Shown here: piece after piece, positions 2,966 to 54,848 of the stretch
Position numbering within the stretch: position 1 is the stretch's first letter
Layout of the letters: every line of letters starts with the position of its first letter
NCBI GenBank assembly: GCA_976551045.1
Contig: CDPCPM010000069.1
Coordinates: 4,278,001-4,342,000, forward strand
Reading direction: 5' to 3'
From: Glaucostegus cemiculus
Taxonomy: Eukaryota
Length of the DNA: 64,000 bases
Program-made: the position numbers and the translations under genes
The notes under the pieces: generated by a model
The model's database searches: none
What the model saw: the letters and a program-made list of their open reading frames with translations, nothing else
Told to the model about the DNA's origin: nothing

Positions 2966-4429
2966 GGAAATAGGAAATGGAGCACCACAGAGAGTATTTA
3001 GCAGGGGAACAGGAGCAGAAGTTCCATTGGGCATTATAAAGAATATCAGAGCCAACCTCAGTAAAAGTTGGCACCTGCTGATTAGATTAGCAGAACCATG
3101 AAGAAACTCCATCTTTGGAGAAGTAAAAGGAACAGAATCTTATTCCATTGTTGAAGTATGCAGTAGTGATAGAAATAATTTACTCACATCTCAGAGGAAT
3201 AGTCATATTCAATGAGAACATAAAATCTGAGTCTGACTGATGAGTACCCAGTAAAATATAGAAATAGAGAGGATCAGAGATGACTGGTTAGAATGAATAA
3301 ATATGGAGGTAAGATGGAAATGAGGACACTGCAAAGGGAGGTCCAGACTTGATGAAGAAAGAGTTAGAAGTCAAATAAATATTCAATAGCAACAATATGT
3401 ATATACAGTAAAATGGCCCACCTGGGTTTCACAAAGTAAGTACAAAAAGATAAGCTATGAATCATAAGATAATAAGGTATTCTTATTACCCAAACTGCTC
3501 TTTTTCCTCTGAGTATCATTTAGAAGTGTGATTTTTTTTCTTGACACAGACTATACAACAGAAGAATAAGTTTTAAACAAAAGGAGTATTTGAGATTTAC
3601 TACTTCACCAATTCACCAGTTGATGCAGCCTCTCAATTTCATAGGAACAGTATCAACCAACCACTCTTTTTAAAATATATTTTTGCATAAGTAGGTGCGT
3701 TAGGACTTGTCTAAAAAACTGGTAAGTTTTGGGAGTTTCTTAAAGGAGGAAAAAGGGGCAGAGAGATGTTCCAGAACTAATGAGATGGGGCAATTCCCAA
3801 GTTCAGGAATCACTGGACACAGAGACATTAGTATTGGAGAGTAAAAAAATTGGGACTTTTCAAGGCACTAGAGTTAGAGGAATGTAGATATCTCATAGGT
3901 TTTTGTATTTGAAGAAGATTATAAAGATGGGGTGGGGAAAACTCATGGAAAAAACTGAAAACAATTTAGAAAATGTTTAAAATCAATATTGCCAGTCTTG
4001 GAGTGATCTTGATCTGTGAGCACAGGTTTGATGAGTGAAGGGGATTTGATGCAGTTAGGACACAAGCAGCAGAATTTGAATGAGCTCAAATTTCACAATT
4101 CAGAACCTTTGGTGAAGCAACTAACACGTGATTTATCAAAGATTTTAAAATTCTTAGCAAATGGGGGATCTTCATTCCTCAATCAAAATACTCTATATAC
4201 AAAGTACTTTTCTTTATTTGCTAAAACTGTAATGCCACAAATGAAAGGTATGTATAAAATTAGCTGAGCTTAATGTTGGAAAATGAAACTATAATTTTTA
4301 AAACCAAGCTGCAACAGTCATTTACAAATGTCTTGAATTACTGTAATTGTAGACTGTGCTTAATTATTCAGATGCTTTGTGTGAATGTTTCCATTTTCCT
4401 TCCACAGAGTACAAGAACCTTTATAAAAC

Positions 4430-6158: not shown

Positions 6159-6492
6159 TGTCACAATGTTGATTGAAGAGCAAGATCACAGAGAACCCAA
6201 ATGCAGCACACTGGTACAAGACTGGAGTCAGGATACTTCCTCAGGACCAGATACAGGCAACACTGGAAGGAAATCTTGCCTCGGAGATCTGAGTAGTAAT
6301 CCCAACACAAACTGAATCTTCAGGGTTGATCAATCCTCCGGCAACTAGTGCTAGAGAAACCCAGGTACTTATGCTAGGCCCCTGATGGGGCTCAGGTGTG
6401 TCATTGTGCAATCAGTCCAGCATGGAATCCATGTGCTGTACAACGAGGCATCTAAGGAACCAAATCAAGGGCCAGTACTCAGAATCATGACA
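6159..6492 (-). mobile_element. Solo LTR of a Tf1/sushi-like (chromoviral Gypsy) element
   Basis: TGTCA...TGACA termini; perfect 5-bp TSD AAAAT (6154-6158 / 6493-6497); near-identical to the LTRs at 10105-10513 and 10858-11132. Confidence 0.93.
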
Positions 6493-7819
6493 AAAATAGC
6501 AATCTCATCAATTCAATATGATAAGCAAATTTCTCAAAGGAACAGAAGTAGTGGTCTATTTCCACACATCTGCTGACCATCAAGTTCCAAGTAGGCTCTA
6601 AAGGTTTAAGGTGGTTCAGCAGTGGGGGTACAGGATTGCCGGACACACCTACCCTGTATTGCACCAATAAAAACTCAGATTTCAGTAACTTCATGCAAAT
6701 AAGGCTCATTCTATAAATGTGGAAATTACATAAAAAAGGCCAGAACTTTTAGAAAATGGTTAGTTGATTCATTTGAGGGCAGGTCAGTCTGATGTGACAT
6801 TTTCTGAAAGCAATAACATGCAACATGAATGGTAGAAGTAAGTGGGTATTCTCATTATCATACAGTTCTAGTAACACAAAAAGTGCTGTTCATTCACATG
6901 TATGCTTGGTAATTTAAAACCAGTATTGGCTGTGGATGTCCGTGCAAGGATTTTAGCCTCTGTGCTGAGAAATTTGATCAATTTGGGCAGTTTGGGGCAT
7001 GTTTCACTTTAATATGTCTGATGTTTGCACAATATCAAAGTTGCCTCCAGCAATGTCATCTGGTGCACAGCTCTTATTGCTGTACTTATGGCAAGAGTTG
7101 GCTTTTAACTTGTGACTTCTATATTCCACCCACTCTAAAGCCAGAAGTAAATTCTCCAGCAAACTGGCAAAGAGATAAATCAAGAGGCCCCATGGAGGAA
7201 CAGATTTTTTTGACCACAGCCTCTCTAGACTCATTTGCCTGCATGATCTCTAAGAAAGATTACAATATCTATATAACACAAACTTGAACTTGGCAAAAGA
7301 TTCTACAATCACGGGTCCCCTCATAATTCTGAACCTCACAGTGGCTTAAAGACGCTCAGGCACACAAGTCAACTGGACTATGTTGGGAGTGCTGAGAAGC
7401 ACAGGACAGCTCTGAGACCCCCTTCTAATGCACTCACCTGTATTCACTTGGAGTACTGTAGCTACCAGAGAGTGCTTTAGCGTCTGACTCACTCCCCAGC
7501 AATCAGCAAGGCAATGACCTACCGCTGTGACCTCAATGGGCAGCTGACATCAGCAAATGTGGAGACAAGTTTTCCTCACAATTCAGGGTGAAACCCACCT
7601 TAATTTTGTTTATTTAACTTAGTTTTTCACAAGATTTTTTAAAAAATAGATCACCCATTTAGCACATCCATGTAGAATGAATGCCAATTTCTAGGCAATA
7701 GCACCTGCACCTATCAAAATAGAAAATGTATGTTCTCTTTGAAAAATGTTAAAGCAATTCACACATCCTGAATTGGTCTGAAATGTGATGACAATTGTTA
7801 TGTGGAAATACTGAGGCAC

Positions 7820-8170
7820 ACATAGCTCAGTTTGTGCAACTCTTGCCTCTGATTCAGAAGCTTGGATTCAGGACCTGTCTCACACTGGAGAATGATGTTC
7901 CAGTACAGTAATGGGATCGACTGCTCCACTGGCAAAGGCGGTTCAGCCAGGCTCCATCTCAATAGATGTAAAAATTCCCACAGCACTACTTCAAAGAAGA
8001 GCAAAGGGTTTTCCCCCCAGTTCCTTACACATTCGTTATCCCTCTATCATTATCCCTGGTCATCATCATATTGCCGTTGGATCTTACTGTGAACACACTT
8101 CCTGTGACAGTGTTTCATTGATTGTGAAGTACCTTCAGAGGCTGTGAGAGGTGCTGTATGAATGCATGCA
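7820..8170 (+). mobile_element. Deu-domain SINE (SacSINE1-like)
   Basis: tRNA-like head (gctcag...ctcttgcctctgattcagaag), gatgtaaaaattcccacagcactacttcaaagaagagca, Deu-like core and ttcattgattgtgaagt tail, recognised from memory of the family. Confidence 0.7.
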
Positions 8171-9142
8171 CTGAATAAACAAGTTACTACATTTTGGATT
8201 CTTAATCAAGCAGAAGTGGCATTTAACTGGATATAGTTTACATCTCATGGACCTCCCATACACAGCCTAAGTCTGGAGGCCACCTGGAATTAGTTTCAAG
8301 AATTATACACTTTAGAAATAGAAAAAAAAAGTATGGTTCTTGTCTGTACATACCTGAAATATGCTTGTGTAATCAAAAGAACAACTAAAAGCTCAATCAG
8401 ATACAAGGGAATTATCTGCAAATTATCTTATTTGCAAACAGATATCTGTTGTGGTTGATAATCATGGGACAGGTTTCCACCTGGTAACATCTGACAACAG
8501 TAACAAGGTGACAGGCATAAACACCTATGTAAAACAGCCAGGTTCTTGTGGCAGCAGCTGACACTTCTGAAAAGACCTGCTGGTGTTTATCCATTTGAAC
8601 TGGAATAAGTTGCAGAATTGTTTGCACCTGCTAAAAGTTCAAGACCCATCAAGAAACTCCAGGGGTTAAATCTGTCAACAGATTTTGCATGGTCCAGCAG
8701 TGGAATGCAGCCTTGCTGGGATTGCCAGCATTAAATTGGGGATTGACTCGAGTCCAACACTGGGTCTGATCTGCCACAGGTTCTAACACTACACTCATTG
8801 CAATGGGTTTAGGCCTATGGATTAGCAGGCATATCTATAGACCCAGATGACCCACTGCAATTATGGTTAATTTTATTGAAGTATTTTGATATAGTTTATG
8901 TTTTTAAATTATTTCCATACTATTGTGTTTCAGTTAGTCCTGTTATTTTAATTTTTTTGATCATTTAGTTCAAATTTAATGGCTTTAAGTCACTTTGACT
9001 TAAAATGCTGTAGACAAAGCTTTAACAGAAAGCAAAGCTTTGCACACTGCAGACCTTTGCATTAGGCTGATCAAGATGTTTTAGACTCTGGTGCTGGACT
9101 CAAGGGCATAGAATGTCTCCACAACCAGTCTAGGTAAATGTG

Positions 9143-9273
9143 GGGACACAAGAGCCTGCAGTTGCTGGAGTCGAGAAGAACACACCAAATGCTGAAGGAA
9201 CTCAGCAGGTCAGGCAGCATCTCTGGAGGGAAATGGAGAGTCGACCTTTCCAGTCGAGACCCTTTAGCTGGAG
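9143..9273 (-). mobile_element. Penelope-like element terminal fragment (decayed hammerhead region)
   Basis: gacacaagagcctgcag...gctgaaggaactcagcaggtcaggcagcatc shared with copies at 15705, 24802, 32333, 34222, 35851, 54667. Confidence 0.8.
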
Positions 9274-9529
9274 CAGGTAAATGTGGTTGTGCAGAGATGT
9301 CAGGCGCCAAGTTCAGATAGTCCACGTGGGTATATATTTTGCAGTAAGCTCCATGTATCAAGAACAACGTTGTTTCATGGAAGGAAGAACTTTTAAGTCA
9401 TAAGGCTCTGGCCATTATAAAGTGCTTGATCAGTGCCTTAATGATTACTCTGATTGTTCATTGTACACACAGCTGATGACAGAGGCAATCTGCAAAATAG
9501 ACAGCACCCTGGGATACTTCAGTAACACC

Positions 9530-9730
9530 TGGTATTGATTTTTTTATCACATGTACCAAGATACAGTGAAAAAACTTTTGTGTGCCATCCAGGCAGGTCA
9601 TGTCATATCAAAGTAGTAAAACAAAACAGAATGCAGAGTATAGTGTAGCAGCTACAGAGAAAGTGCAGTGCAGGTAAAGAAATAAAGTGCCAAGGCCACA
9701 ATGAGGTTTATTGTGAGGTCAAGAATTCAC
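9530..9730 (-). mobile_element. Rex1-type LINE 3' UTR fragment
   Basis: Similar to 2708-2965 (cacatgtacc..gatacagtgaaaaa...tacagagaaagtgcagtgcaggta). Confidence 0.7.
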
Positions 9731-10049
9731 CTTAAACCCACAGGAACCTGTTGCCCTGGGTTGGAAACTAGTCACTATTCCTTCAACAACTTTGGTCTAT
9801 GTTCTTAATCACCCTCCCAGTAGTAATGTGAAGGTACCTCACAAGAAGAACAGCAGCAGTTCAAAAGAGCAATTAATGTGGTCCATGCCAGTGACACCCA
9901 CATTTGCAAAAAGTGAAGCTCAAATAATTATTTTTCCTGTAATTTTTCTTCTTTAAGCCTTTCCAGACATAAATTCAGTAAAAATGATTAAGATTTGTAT
10001 CTTTTTGAGGTGACAAATTATGAAGGTTCCAACCCAAATATTGTAGTAA

Positions 10050-11510
10050 ACCATAAGATATAGGAGCAAAATTAGGCCTTTCAGCCCATTGAGTCTGCTC
10101 TACCTGTCACAATGTTGATTGAAGAGCAAGCTCACAGAGAACCCAAATGCAGCACACTGGTACAAGACTGGAGTCAGGATACTTCCTCAGGACCAGACAC
10201 AGGCAACACTGGAAGGAAATCTTGCCTCGGAGATCTGAGTAGTAATCCCAACACAAACTGAATCTTCAAGCAGGATTAGAGAACACAGGACTGCTCTGGA
10301 GTAGACCACGCCAAGCAGCTAGGAACCAAATTGAATCTTCAAGGTTGACCAATGTTCTGGCAACTAGTGCTAGAGAAAACCAGATACTTATGCTAGGCCC
10401 CTGATGGGGCTCAGGTGTGTGTCATTATGACATCAGTCCAGCGTGGAATCCATGTGCTGTACAACGAGGCATCTAAGGAACCAAATCAAGGGCCAGCACT
10501 CTGAATCATGACAGTACCCCCCGCCCCCCCTCAAAGGGAGCCTCCCGGCAACCCACTGGGCTTGTCTGGATTGGTTCTGATGGAAGTCTCAAAGTAGGGG
10601 GAGATCCAAAATAAAGGAGCTAGGAACCCAGGGATGTTCCACCGGACCATATCCCTCCCAATCAACCAAGTACTGCAGGCCCCTACCCTGGCAACATACA
10701 TCCAATACTGGGGGGCAGAGGGGGCTTGGCTGGAGGGCACAATGGACCACTAGCCATTGGCTTCACCTGAGACACGTGGAAAGTGGTGCTCCTACTGATG
10801 GCCCAGGCTGGTCAGACAGGATTCCTATCCACTGGGTTCATGGTGGCCAGAGGATTCTGTCACAATGTTGATTGAAGAGCAAGCTCACAGAGAACCCAAA
10901 TGCAGCACACTGGTACAAGACTGGAGTCAGGATACTTCCTCAGGACCGGACACAGGCAACACTGGAAGGAAATCTTGCCTCAGAGATCTGAGTAGTAATC
11001 CCAACAAACTGAATCTTCAAGCAGGACTAGAGAACACAGGACTGCTCTGGAGTAGACCACTCTAAGCAACTAGGAACCAAACTGAATCTTCAAGGTTGAC
11101 CAAATCAAGGGCCAGTACTCAGAAACATAACACTGCCATTCAATCGTGGTTGATCCTTATAACCCCATTCTCCCACCTTCTCCCTGTTACCCTTAACTTC
11201 TTTACCAATCAAGAACCTATCAATCTCTGCCTTAAATACACACAATGACTTGGCCTCCACAGCCCTCTGTGACAATGAATTCCACAGATCCACACCCTCT
11301 GGCTGAAGAAATTCCACCTCATCTCAGTTTTAAAGGCATGTCCCTTTACTCTGAGGCTGTGTCCTTGGATCCTAGACTCTCCTACTAATGGAAACATCCT
11401 CTCCACTTCCATTCTATCCAGGCCTTTCAGTATCTGGTAGGTTTCAATGAGATCCCCCCTCATCCTTCTGAACTCTGTTGAGCACAGGTCCAGAGATATC
11501 ACATGCTCAA
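10050..11510 (-). mobile_element. CR1 LINE 3' end split by the LTR element (parts 10050-10104 and 11133-11510)
   Basis: ORF 11209..11520 EFRRMRGDLIETYQILKGLDR...GHSLRV; the 3' UTR reads through the insertion (gagtctgct[ctgcc]attcaatc). Confidence 0.9.
10105..11132 (-). mobile_element. Internally deleted chromoviral Gypsy (Tf1/sushi-like) LTR retrotransposon: 5' LTR 10858-11132, 344-bp internal region, 3' LTR 10105-10513
   Basis: Two direct LTRs; TSD CTACC/CTGCC; PPT GAGGGGGGGCGGGGGGTAC next to the 3' LTR; gag start MNPVDRNPV* at 10841; integrase tail TFHVSQVKP; chromodomain [34 protein letters not shown]. Confidence 0.93.
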
Positions 11511-13922
11511 CCTCAAACAATCTAAACTCTAAACAACCCCACCTGAATCATAGGCCTGGATTTACTTTTCCAGAAGGCAAAGGGCATTCCGTATAGTTCA
11601 ACATTGTTTTTTTACATTTCCAACATTTATTTTGTATTTGTAGCCATTGACATTTTGACACAGTTTGAATTTAACAGAGGTATTTCATATTAAAATGTTT
11701 ATTCTTTAAGAAAGTGACAAAGATTTTAATGTGCTTAAAAGATGTTATCTATTAAAATGTTTTCAGTAATTTGAGGTTTGGTGAATGTTATTTCAATTAG
11801 GAGTTTGCTTTCTATTTAATTTAACCAAAACATCTGAAAATGAACAGGTGTGGATAGGAGGATTCTGGATTTGCTGATGGCAGGAATGTTGTCTATTACA
11901 CTTGCCAAAATGACTGGCTCCAAGATTATCGCCTGACTGATCAAAGAAGCTCAAGAGAAGAAAGGTCATAGCAATCTGTTCTTTTTCAAATTGCTATTAC
12001 CATATCAATGTTCAAAACAGAAGACAAAATCCCAAGAGGGTCATCTTGTCCACTGTCAAGAAGATCTTGAGCATGTTATAACCTTGTTGTTAACTGTAAT
12101 AGATCAAAAGAGCTTTCAGCAGAATGTCAGTGAACAGGCTGAACAGCAAGTTATCAGTCCTTTGCTACAAAGGCTACTTCACATTGGCTTCAACTACTGT
12201 GCTCCTTGCTTCACTCAAAGGAACCCAGATGCATTCTCCTTTATCTGCAATATTTATACCATAAAAACATGTGCTGGCTTACTATGGGGATCAGTTTTGA
12301 GTGCAAAATTAATTACAAGTAAATCAACAGTCCCTCTGTAATCATCCTGCCTGTTGCAAAAACTGAAATATTTTTTAAGAAATAAAGCCGTTTTAAAAGT
12401 GAATCTCAAACCTGTAAATAAATTTCTGTGATATCCAAGCACATTTGACAGATTTGATATGTATGTTTTCAGCTCAGTTCTTCTTTTTATAATCTATCCT
12501 TTTAGATTAACAACTAAAGTTATCTTGCCTGCAGATATGGCATGGGAAAGATTTCTTATCATATTTATGTATGACATTCGTTTGTCCTTTTTCAAAATAT
12601 GGTGTGAGATGAATCACCAAGACAAAGCAGGTTATAGGCTAAATGTGGGTAAATAGGATTAGTACTGATACATACAATGGTTGGCATGGACATGGTGGCC
12701 GCACCTACAAATGGAATGAGGAATCAGGTCAAAAAGCAGCAAGGAAACCTCCAGTTGATTACCACCCACTGCCTTCCTTTTGCTGATGAAACCATATCCT
12801 GCCAAACTGAATACTGCATGGAAAAAGTACCGATAAACTAATGGCAGCAAGGGGCCATCACCAAGAGAGGTTTGGCAGTATTAGCACTGACCAAGCTGGC
12901 CGAGCCCTGAAGGTCAAACGTGTGACGGGCATTAGAGAAACAACCAGAACAAAGTCTTCCTGATCTGATTCTCCTCAGTTGCATCAATCCATGAAATTAT
13001 AAGAGGAGCGACCACTGTTCAGTCCTTGCGGAGCCAAAGTTCAACCTTTGTACAGAGTGATCATCTCAGACATATTCTGTGGTACTCCCATCACAGTAAT
13101 TCTGATAGATTCACAACAAATCTGGGCACAGGTGAGTCGCACTGAATCATTTGCAACAGCAGAATTATGTTCCACCATGTTCTGAGCCTTATAGCTGCGC
13201 CATTCCTTCCACCATTACTGTCATGCCTAGGGCCAGCTCTGGTTCAGTGAGGAGGGAACCTGGTAAAGGTACAATACAAGACTTAATGTATGCTAATCAG
13301 TGGAAACGGTACATTATAGATGAAACCAAGAAATTTCATAACCAGTGGATCATTAACTCACAAAATAAAAAGCTCAGCCAGATAAATGAGTATGCTGGTG
13401 GAGTGAAGCTGCTTTAGTTTCCATTCAAGGAAGAAACTTTGGATCCTCAGACCATCCTGGTGTTGGGATGGAAGACATCCATAGTAAAGATAATATAGTT
13501 GGGACCAGGAAAATGTCATATTAGTAGAATCCTGCCTTACATTATGGAAGCAAATTCTACTTCCTAGCTGTTGGTTGGAAGCCCACATCATTCTCATCCA
13601 AGTACTTTTTAAATTTGATTAGGGTGTTTGCCTCTTTCCTTTCTTTCAGGCAGTAAGTTCAATACCCCAACAATTCTTTTGGTAAAATGACCAATTACTG
13701 CAAATATTGACACGGCCCCCCCCCCCCCCCACCTCACCTCCTATTTAATGACTCTCCGCTGGGTCTTTTCATTTTTAGCCTGTCCATGCTTTCTATTATT
13801 ATATACTAATTGATTAAATCTCTCCGTCACTTCTTCTATTTCAAAATCAACCAACTCCATTCTAGGCTTGTTCTCACCTCATAATTACAGTTCTCTAAAC
13901 CTGGCAACATGATTGTAAATCT

Positions 13923-52304: not shown

Positions 52305-52418
52305 CTCTTGACCTCAATCTACTTTGTTATGACCTTGAACCTTATTGTCTACCTGCACTACACTTTCTCTATAGCTGTAACACTTTATTCTGCTCTCTGT
52401 CATCGTTTTACCTTCTAC

Positions 52419-53336
52419 GACAGTGGTGGGTCTTGTCATGAACAACGATGAAACAAACTATAGAGAAGAGGTGAAGCAACTGGCCATGTGGTGCAGCAAC
52501 AACAACCTCTCCCTGAATGTGGAAAAAAACAAGGAGATGGTAGTGGATTTCAGGAAAGGTCGCCGTGTGCACACCCCACTGACCATCAACGGGTCTGCGG
52601 TGGAACAAGTCAACAGCACCAAGTTCCTGGGGGTGCACATCACTGGTGACCTGACCTGGTCCATTAACACCACAGCCCTCACCAAGAAAGCCCAGAAACG
52701 CCTCTACTTCCTGCGGAGATTGAGGAAAGTGAACTCCCATCCTTCTATTATGAAAACTTTTTATAGAGGGACCATTGAGAGTATCCTGACACACTGCATC
52801 ACCATCTGGTATGGGAGCTGCTTAGCTGCTGGACTAAAGTCCCTGCAGAGAATAGTGAGAGCGGCAGAGAAGATCATAGGTGCCTCTCTACCCTCTATTG
52901 CAGATATATACAAGGACCAATGTATCAGAAAGGCCACAAACATAATGTCGGACCCTTCTCACCCCTCCTACCACCTGTTTACACTCTTGCCATCCGGAAG
53001 AAGGCTCCAGTGCATCTGGGCAAGGACTACCAGACTGTGCAATAGCTTCTTCCCACAAGCTATCAGAACCATGAACTCCCTCATCCCTCCCGCCAATACC
53101 AAAGGATGTTAGGCGTACAAAAATGCACCAGCACTTTAAATGTCTGCTGCCTCAGTACGTTCATTTTAAGATTGTTTATTCAAGTTGCTATTTAATTTTG
53201 TGGTTCCAATGTTGTTAACGTCTTTCTGTCTCTCATTTTTTTTTAATGTGACGAGCACCTTGATCTGTGGAGTACAGTATTTCACTCCCATGCATACTGA
53301 ATGTGTATATGGAACTGACAATAAAACTAATTCTGA
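52419..53336 (+). mobile_element. Young 5'-truncated Rex1/Babar LINE nested in an older Rex1 3' tail (52305-52418 and 53343-53444)
   Basis: Uninterrupted 229-codon ORF 52423..53112 (WCSNNNLSLNVEK.KEMVVDFR, KFLGVHI, AQKRLYFLRRL, LPSGRR, NSFFPQAIR); flanking TTCTAC at 52413-52418 and 53337-53342. Confidence 0.92.
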
Positions 53337-54452: not shown

Positions 54453-54666
54453 CTAGTCACAACGAAAAAGAAATAGAGAGAAAAATGGGAAACACAAACA
54501 TCCATGAAAATGGGACAGGAACACAAGTAGAGAGGAGAAAACATGAGAGACAATAGTATGAAGATAACTAGAATGACAAGTGAATGTGGACAGAGTAGAA
54601 ATATTGCATGTCTATTATCATCATCCCCAGTTGCCCAAGTTACATTTAAATGACATCAAATATTTT

Positions 54667-54848
54667 GAGCAACAAACACAAAATGCTGGAGGAACTCAGC
54701 AGGTCAGACTCTGTCCCAATGAAGGGTTTCAGCCCAAAATATTAACTGTTCATTTCCCTCCATTGATACTGCCTGACCTGCTGAGTTCCTCCAGCATTTT
54801 GTGTTTGTTGCTCCAGATTTCTAGCATCTATAGTCTCTCTTGTGTCTC
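54667..54848. mobile_element. Fold-back Penelope-like terminal element
   Basis: 41-bp perfect inverted repeat 54667-54707 / 54773-54813 around a decayed hammerhead region. Confidence 0.88.

Follow-up and report, generated by a model that had tools for sequence, protein, structure and literature searches.

A chromovirus family of Glaucostegus cemiculus very probably primes reverse transcription with the predicted 5' end of its own RNA

The window, the whole 64,000-nt stretch of Glaucostegus cemiculus DNA that was analysed, contains a miniature derivative of a Ty3/gypsy chromovirus, dead and non-coding, and a separate solo LTR. The family to which they belong very probably primes reverse transcription as Tf1 does, with what are predicted to be the first 11 bases of its own transcript. 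It is probably an additional member of the described Tf1/sushi self-priming group, whose mechanism is already known; self-priming is already in print as a common trait of that group, vertebrate elements included. Directly established for the family are its anatomy, complementarity in cis, two compensatory changes, a TATA-like box at a constant distance of 31 nt, the lack of any TGG-type primer binding site (PBS) and an identical geometry in a second family. The cis 11-mer, its covariation, the second family and the lack of a tRNA-type PBS support the original prediction that these elements replicate without a tRNA primer.

The miniature lies on the minus strand, as do all features below, between the target-site duplications (TSDs) GGCAG (11133-11137) and GGTAG (10100-10104, a 4/5 match to the 5' copy). 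It is a 1.03-kb deletion derivative in which the gag start is joined to the integrase tail and chromodomain. A leader and gag-start remnant (10782-10857) matches long-copy internal positions 1-39 and 197-240, and a frameshifted integrase C-terminal remnant (10514-10786) matches positions 4070-4336 at 85%. A chromodomain remnant (10604-10690; Pfam Chromo E 3e-4, 21 bits, under the 25.1 cut-off) and a polypurine tract (PPT, 10514-10532) precede the 3' LTR, which spans 409 bp (10105-10513). The 5' LTR (10858-11132, 275 bp, TG...CA) is 97% identical to it across the 245 bp in common. An internal deletion of ~130 bp by alignment takes out its TATA-like box and self-primer 11-mer (275 bp vs 409). 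There is a TTGG microhomology at the deletion junction (11100-11103), and the junction's right end coincides with the 3' boundary of the self-primer site (LTR position 162-165). The window copy is unable to self-prime because its 5' LTR has neither promoter nor primer.

The solo LTR (6159-6492, 334 bp) belongs to the same family, is 95.5% identical to the 3' LTR, has its own 5-bp TSD, ATTTT, and is a separate insertion. The letters and coordinates first read from this stretch hold throughout. After the 5' LTR and a 1-nt spacer, G, the element reads AATCCTCTGGC (10856-10846), a PBS of the short-copy type at LTR+2 that lacks the tRNA-type TGG layout. The solo LTR 11-mer GCCGGAGGATT (6342-6332) is complementary to it over 11 pairs with one G:U, and a TATA-like CATAAGTA (6366-6373) begins 31 nt ahead. 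In the 3' LTR the TATA-like CATAAGTA (10385-10392) is followed by GCCAGAACATT at the same site (10361-10351), with two mismatches to the PBS (-9.7 kcal/mol). The 11-bp pairing inside the window joins two insertions, because the element's own 5' LTR lost its 11-mer and the solo LTR is separate.

Complementarity was examined in cis across the family, where the LTRs do bear the expected 11-mer pairing with their own PBS. The genome carries at least 304 copies with a PBS. Among 80 copies, the 5' LTR matched its own PBS by Watson-Crick pairing at 11/11 positions in 30, at 10 in 29, at 9 in 12 and at 8 or fewer in 9, so that 59/80 reached 10-11. Shuffled LTRs gave at best 9 of 11 (2/80), and foreign PBSs 7-9. 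Within the window, chance would have been a fair objection: 24 of 2000 shuffled solo LTRs (1.2%) reached at least 11 contiguous pairs with the 18 nt past the LTR when G:U was allowed. Family copies, however, need no G:U, hold the pairing at one fixed position across two double changes and show it again in a second family, and the probability of chance complementarity is negligible; we regard it as already refuted by these observations.

A host tRNA, or a tRNA fragment, priming at or near the PBS is very improbable. A TGG does lie 8 nt past the end of the LTR, and the sample of tRNA genes, 41 sequences, is a partial set covering 7 isotypes only. None of these pairs over more than 1 nt directly past the LTR (at offsets 0-3 the 3' end pairs by 1 nt at best, at offset 8 by 5 nt; internally the longest match is 7 nt), and no TGG occurs at LTR+1 to +4. 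Moreover, PBS and LTR letters change together from one subfamily to another, which a fixed tRNA would forbid.

This covariation of the two 11-mers, sought between subfamilies and in the second family, was found in both. Two compensatory changes distinguish three groups: long copies, short copies and an older subfamily. The first pairs PBS base 4 (A/C) with primer base 8 (T/G), at 23:12 versus 11:27 in 5' LTRs (p = 0.002) and 10:2 versus 5:22 in 40 two-LTR copies with TSD (p = 2e-4); of 36 further C-type copies, 22 carried G and 11 T at primer base 8, which was missing in 3. The second distinguishes the older subfamily (LTR identity 73-76%): GCCAGATTATT-type bases 7-8 occur in 25/30 LTRs and the AATAATCT-type PBS in 7/7. 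Within the main family, linkage of primer base 8 with PBS base 4 (r 0.38, or 0.61 in the 40-copy set) is no tighter than at some unrelated sites, such as LTR site 216 (0.62-0.64), and therefore subfamily descent alone accounts for the association. We count it as one event only and dropped within-family linkage as proof of selection.

The second family shows a gag identity of 42-49% and has an LTR without a blastn match. Here GTTCACTCAT(C/T) occurs in 17/30 LTRs opposite the PBS GATGAGTGAAC in identical register. The layout recurs in different letters, with the TATA-like box at -31, LTR+2 as the PBS position and a further duplex between U5 and leader; the TATA-like box (TATAAG in the older subfamily) begins 31 nt upstream of the 11-mer in all three groups. 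Decayed copies of this family score 7-11/11 versus 7-8 when shuffled (7 copies). In two candidate further families, L297 and L236, an LTR pair was not seen.

A second predicted duplex would flank the primer helix. In the window its U5 arm (10892-10907) pairs with the leader directly past the PBS (10828-10845), overlapping the gag ATG (10842-10840). Across copies its median energy is -19.4 versus -12.3 kcal/mol for shuffled sequences (110/121). These counts follow in part from the search pattern itself, and 23/144 contexts were dropped. The copies lend support to the central and downstream duplexes of the predicted three-duplex 'pretzel', a pseudoknot that the folding program cannot represent; by inspection the upstream duplex has only 4-5 bp.

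The long-range pairing might instead be a regulatory or packaging structure, with priming by something else. A decamer in the R region of many LTRs is predicted to form a local hairpin that competes for the 11-mer, so that alternative folds exist, and long-type copies often lack the primer/PBS helix in pseudoknot-free folding. The paired segment nevertheless lies precisely at LTR+2, the point from which minus-strand synthesis has to begin. In two unrelated LTR families its length is 11 nt and its end coincides with the predicted transcription start, and a further primer site is absent; we consider such a structural role improbable. A role of the competing hairpin as a conserved switch was also considered and rejected, since the hairpin shows no covariation with primer base 8 and has little strength in the older subfamily; the hairpin is retained as a lead.

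For self-priming, we propose that transcription would begin at the first base of the LTR 11-mer, as the 31-nt TATA spacing suggests, that this RNA 5' end would fold onto the PBS with the aid of the U5/leader duplex, and that a long partner element would supply the RNase H to cut past base 11. A splice-junction primer is unneeded, the 11-mer being contiguous. The long copies encode gag-PR-RT-RH-IN with a CCHC motif and a chromodomain, a domain order read in a long copy (L085) whose LTR is shared with the family; an env match was not seen in them. The nearest PDB matches are PEG10 for Gag and Ty3 for RT, and a PDB search with the chromodomain gave 41 matches at E up to 1, mostly chromodomains. 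The chromodomain motif is present in 4/5 of the main- and older-family long copies read and was not found in the single second-family copy read. Short copies have an LTR of ~409 bp and an internal region mostly of 330-390 bp (no more than 600 bp in 31/34 C-type two-LTR copies), and may have borrowed Gag and Pol from the long copies.

The 11-mer could also often act in trans, from a co-packaged RNA, a variant that does not exclude self-priming. Primer and PBS alleles are mismatched in 23/73 copies at the dimorphic site. Single insertions carry mosaic LTR pairs, whose members differ at 42/183 comparisons (five transversion dimorphisms) versus a 1.6% background; RNAs or cDNAs of separate copies therefore mix. 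Matched primer/PBS combinations predominate, however, and mismatches may come from recombination or later gene conversion without priming. The predicted 5'/3' linkage asymmetry was not found (P about 0.5); a first linkage test had hinted that a single RNA templates both the PBS and R-U5 of the 5' LTR, which the stricter 40-copy set did not support (P about 0.5). We consider frequent priming in trans unlikely.

Breakpoints at the predicted cleavage site, base 11/12 of the predicted RNA (LTR 162-166), occur in 9 copies, the window copy included, with 6 junction types. Of the deletion types, 48 after cleaning by hand, three overlap 163-165 (P = 0.023 under a uniform null), a number that four other LTR regions likewise reach, and TTGG microhomology accounts for the commonest type there. 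Among 36 fresh copies, no new 5' deletion fell at the cluster and one 3' junction fell at 165. The excess of deletions in 5' LTRs (42/144 vs 15/100, p = 0.013; p = 0.12 with unclassified LTRs counted) is inflated by misaligned truncated copies. Cluster and excess were set aside as firm evidence, and the cluster stands as a weakly supported lead. We speculate, tentatively and with more doubt than belief, that the breakpoints record primer cleavage, that short copies outdid their long partners and that the two LTRs routinely come from different molecules. As part of this, short copies may have moved the primer duplex stepwise to G-C (-14.0, -16.3, -18.5 kcal/mol) and also weakened the competing R-region hairpin.

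In Schizosaccharomyces pombe, self-priming of Tf1 was shown by experiment (PMC7175516; bioRxiv 10.1101/2022.12.06.519325). As described there, Tf1/Tf2 share with our family an 11-nt complement of the predicted RNA 5' end to a PBS adjoining the LTR, no tRNA PBS, a U5/PBS-adjacent flanking duplex and a chromodomain integrase. Our elements differ in their vertebrate host and in a Gag with a CCHC motif, which those accounts give as absent in fission yeast; one of two flanking duplexes is supported here, and start and cut are predicted.

Descriptions of the vertebrate Tf1/sushi group (sushi-ichi; V-clade chromoviruses), for which Butler et al. 2001 is cited, state self-priming as a common feature. 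The likeness extends to a Ty3/gypsy chromovirus with PEG10-like Gag and a predicted self-priming 'pretzel'; the 11-mer letters differ, and our family has a large non-coding short derivative. A narrow literature search found no paper on such elements with self-priming in sharks or zebrafish.

TRIMs (terminal-repeat retrotransposons in miniature) are defined as under 1000 bp with terminal repeats of 100-250 bp and a tRNA-complementary PBS (PMC6934838). The short copies resemble them as short non-autonomous LTR elements amplified to many copies with a PBS region, PPT and 5-bp TSD. Unlike TRIMs so described, they measure ~1.15 kb with ~409-bp LTRs, have a PBS that is not tRNA-complementary, and keep clear coding remnants and an identifiable long partner.

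The mosaic LTRs mean that dating by LTR divergence overestimates ages in this family, and should the breakpoint cluster prove real, the primer cut would be legible from genome sequence alone. In the sources cited, self-priming is experimental for Tf1 and proposed for its vertebrate relatives. This genome lends the proposal comparative support: one lineage shows two compensatory changes, and a second family keeps the geometry although its letters have changed completely. The analysis pinpoints the exact bases at which the 5' ends of the family's RNA are predicted.

The window carries a miniature LTR retrotransposon on the minus strand (11132-10105), composed of a 275-bp 5' LTR, a 344-bp internal region, a PPT and a 409-bp 3' LTR and bounded by the TSD GGCAG/GGTAG. 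A solo LTR of the same family, also on the minus strand (6492-6159), is flanked by a TSD of its own. Every sequence claim of the original prediction is borne out: just after the 5' LTR, the primer binding site (PBS) AATCCTCTGGC begins at LTR+2 and pairs over 11 bases, one of them G:U, with an 11-mer of the solo LTR that begins 31 nt after the TATA-like CATAAGTA, and the primer site of the 3' LTR has two mismatches to the PBS. Equally good pairing occurred in 24 of 2000 shuffled solo LTRs. The element's 5' LTR lacks about 130 bp that would hold both the TATA-like box and the 11-mer; because of this and the two mismatches in the 3' LTR, the window copy cannot fold back on itself.

Its internal region is a gag start fused to an integrase tail and retains a chromodomain remnant. 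Long copies sharing its LTR encode DUF4939/Retrotrans_gag/Ty3_capsid, protease, RT, RNase H, integrase and SH3_Tf2-1 domains with CCHC and chromodomain motifs, and the reading frames are broken in both long copies whose frames were listed. The best PDB match of Gag is PEG10 (E 1.8e-6), the product of a sushi-ichi-related gene (PMC4340606). The main family is a Ty3/gypsy chromovirus and the window copy a non-autonomous deletion derivative. The LTR-end/PBS region gave 961 first-look candidates in the same genome (2.85 Gb), and the LTR-end/PBS/ATG pattern 304 exact matches, 136 with the window's PBS type. One copy, L001 (G000:C113:138029-141169, on a 263-kb contig), repeats window 9290-12430, element and flanks, at 99.9% identity, reflecting either a segmental duplication or haplotypes left uncollapsed in the assembly.

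Complementarity in cis was assessed in 80 copies, 40 of each PBS type, taken from the first 100 pattern matches listed. The best 11-mer of each copy's own 5' LTR formed 11 pairs with the PBS in 30 copies, 10 in 29, 9 in 12 and at most 8 in 9; shuffled LTRs reached 9 pairs at most, and the PBS of a second family gave 7-9 pairs on main-family LTRs.

The two 11-mers also covary, at PBS base 4 and its partner, primer base 8 (T or G). PBS base 4 is A in long copies and C in short, non-coding ones: 23 of 30 A-type copies exceed 1300 bp, and 31 of 34 two-LTR C-type copies have an internal region of <=600 bp. Its association with base 8 was 23:12 versus 11:27 for 5' LTRs (p=0.002), 14:13 versus 5:29 for 3' LTRs, and 10:2 versus 5:22 in 40 two-LTR copies with a TSD, which overlap the 80-copy sample (p=2e-4). 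In 36 fresh C-type copies, base 8 was G in 22, T in 11 and missing in 3. Linkage is equally strong at other LTR sites, so the association counts as one inherited double change and is no proof of ongoing selection. An older subfamily (LTRs 73-76% identical), with TATAAG at -31, has TT at primer bases 7-8 in 25 of 30 LTRs and AA at PBS bases 4-5 in 7 of 7, which gives a second double change. Predicted duplex energies are -14.0 (older), -16.3 (long) and -18.5 kcal/mol (short); for mismatched pairs the values are -12.3 and -12.9 kcal/mol.

A host tRNA is an unlikely alternative primer. No TGG follows the LTR, and the PBS letters change in step with the LTR, which argues against a host primer. Pairing with a partial set of 41 tRNA gene sequences (7 isotypes) from the same genome did not exceed 1 nt for offsets 0-3 or 5 nt for offset 8. 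Lys-TTT makes up 30 of the 41 distinct sequences recovered, and dense tRNA gene arrays lie on contigs C594 and C1156. In Tf1, RNA bases 1-11 anneal to the PBS and are severed from base 12 by RNase H (PMC7175516). By analogy, transcription of the main family would start at the LTR 11-mer, the leader would then fold back to place it on the PBS, and the RT of a long copy would make the cut and extend the primer.

The second Ty3/gypsy family, older and located via its integrase SH3 domain (e.g. L298, G000:C363:1381500-1391400), bears its own self-priming signature. It consists for the most part of solo LTRs (115 first-look candidates), and blastn found no match between its LTR and that of the main family. 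A TATTTAA-like box precedes by 31 nt the start of this family's LTR 11-mer GTTCACTCAT(C/T), exact in 17 of 30 LTRs, and the 11-mer is complementary to GATGAGTGAAC at LTR+2. The seven copies that retain a PBS are decayed, with scores of 7-11 versus 7-8 for shuffled sequence.

The leader after the PBS is predicted to pair with U5 through a core of 7-8 bp plus a 3-nt bulge and an additional arm, consistent with one of the arms in the 'pretzel' of Tf1 (bioRxiv 10.1101/2022.12.06.519325); a candidate for the other, upstream arm spans 4-5 bp by inspection. The second family has a predicted U5/leader duplex in other letters. Real energies had a median of -19.4 kcal/mol versus -12.3 for shuffled sequence and were better in 110 of 121 contexts, drawn with a pattern that favoured conserved copies. 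In pseudoknot-free folding, the minimum-energy structure contained the primer/PBS helix for 23 of the 30 perfect copies and for 1 of the 12 with a mismatch at base 8. An R-region decamer, ATACTTTGGC, ~26 nt past the primer start (e.g. copies L085, L099 and L122), closely resembles the long-type PBS and is predicted to fold with the T-type primer into a local hairpin that competes with the primer/PBS helix. This hairpin is weaker with the G-type primer and weak in the older subfamily; the window's LTR type has a duplicated downstream segment in place of the decamer.

At five transversion dimorphisms, 42 of 183 comparisons show a difference between the two LTRs of a single insertion (background 1.6%), and in copies L061-L140 and other two-LTR copies 17-37% of family dimorphisms differ between a copy's own LTRs. 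Differences within single insertions include a 12-bp indel, and TSDs are intact. Template mixing during reverse transcription or later gene conversion may be the cause; assembly error is less likely. No 5'/3' direction was found in this mosaicism, and LTR-divergence dating (median 5.8%) is unreliable in the main family. Nine copies, with junctions of six types, terminate at LTR 162-166, which is the 3' end of the primer: three independent insertions of the window deletion type, three copies with two further deletions, an inversion and two joins to internal sequence. This clustering has weak statistical support, and microhomology is an alternative explanation. Copy L030 (G000:C13:10164741-10167881) is two short elements fused head-to-head, one LTR starting at position 163. 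In copies L061-L063, L101, L121, L355-L357 and L378, the 5' LTR begins at position 133, joined to the same LINE-like sequence in all five with flank inspected, and none has a 3' LTR within the fetched range; they appear to represent a chimeric junction that itself multiplied. Tandem elements with a shared or abutting LTR (L025, L055/L056, L223) resemble tandem Tf1/Tf2 insertions (PMC11042837).

Elsewhere in the window, a 243-aa plus-strand frame (52381-53112) with ALKBH8_N and weak RVT_1 matches is probably a LINE 3' end. A 46-nt inverted repeat (54662-54818; arms 96% complementary, 65 nt apart) is part of a short dispersed repeat that occurs 7 times in the window.

A narrow literature search found no shark or zebrafish case of self-priming, and the relevant passages of a TRIM paper (PMC6934838) mention it for other elements only, not TRIMs. 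Comparable covariation may already stand in the text or supplements of Butler et al. 2001 and the Levin papers. In print, self-priming counts as a general trait of the Tf1/sushi group, from yeast to vertebrates (PMC6317226, PMC4600332, bioRxiv 10.1101/2022.12.06.519325). That the self-priming signature of the main family is real is well supported, and it is a trait already known from the Tf1/sushi group.
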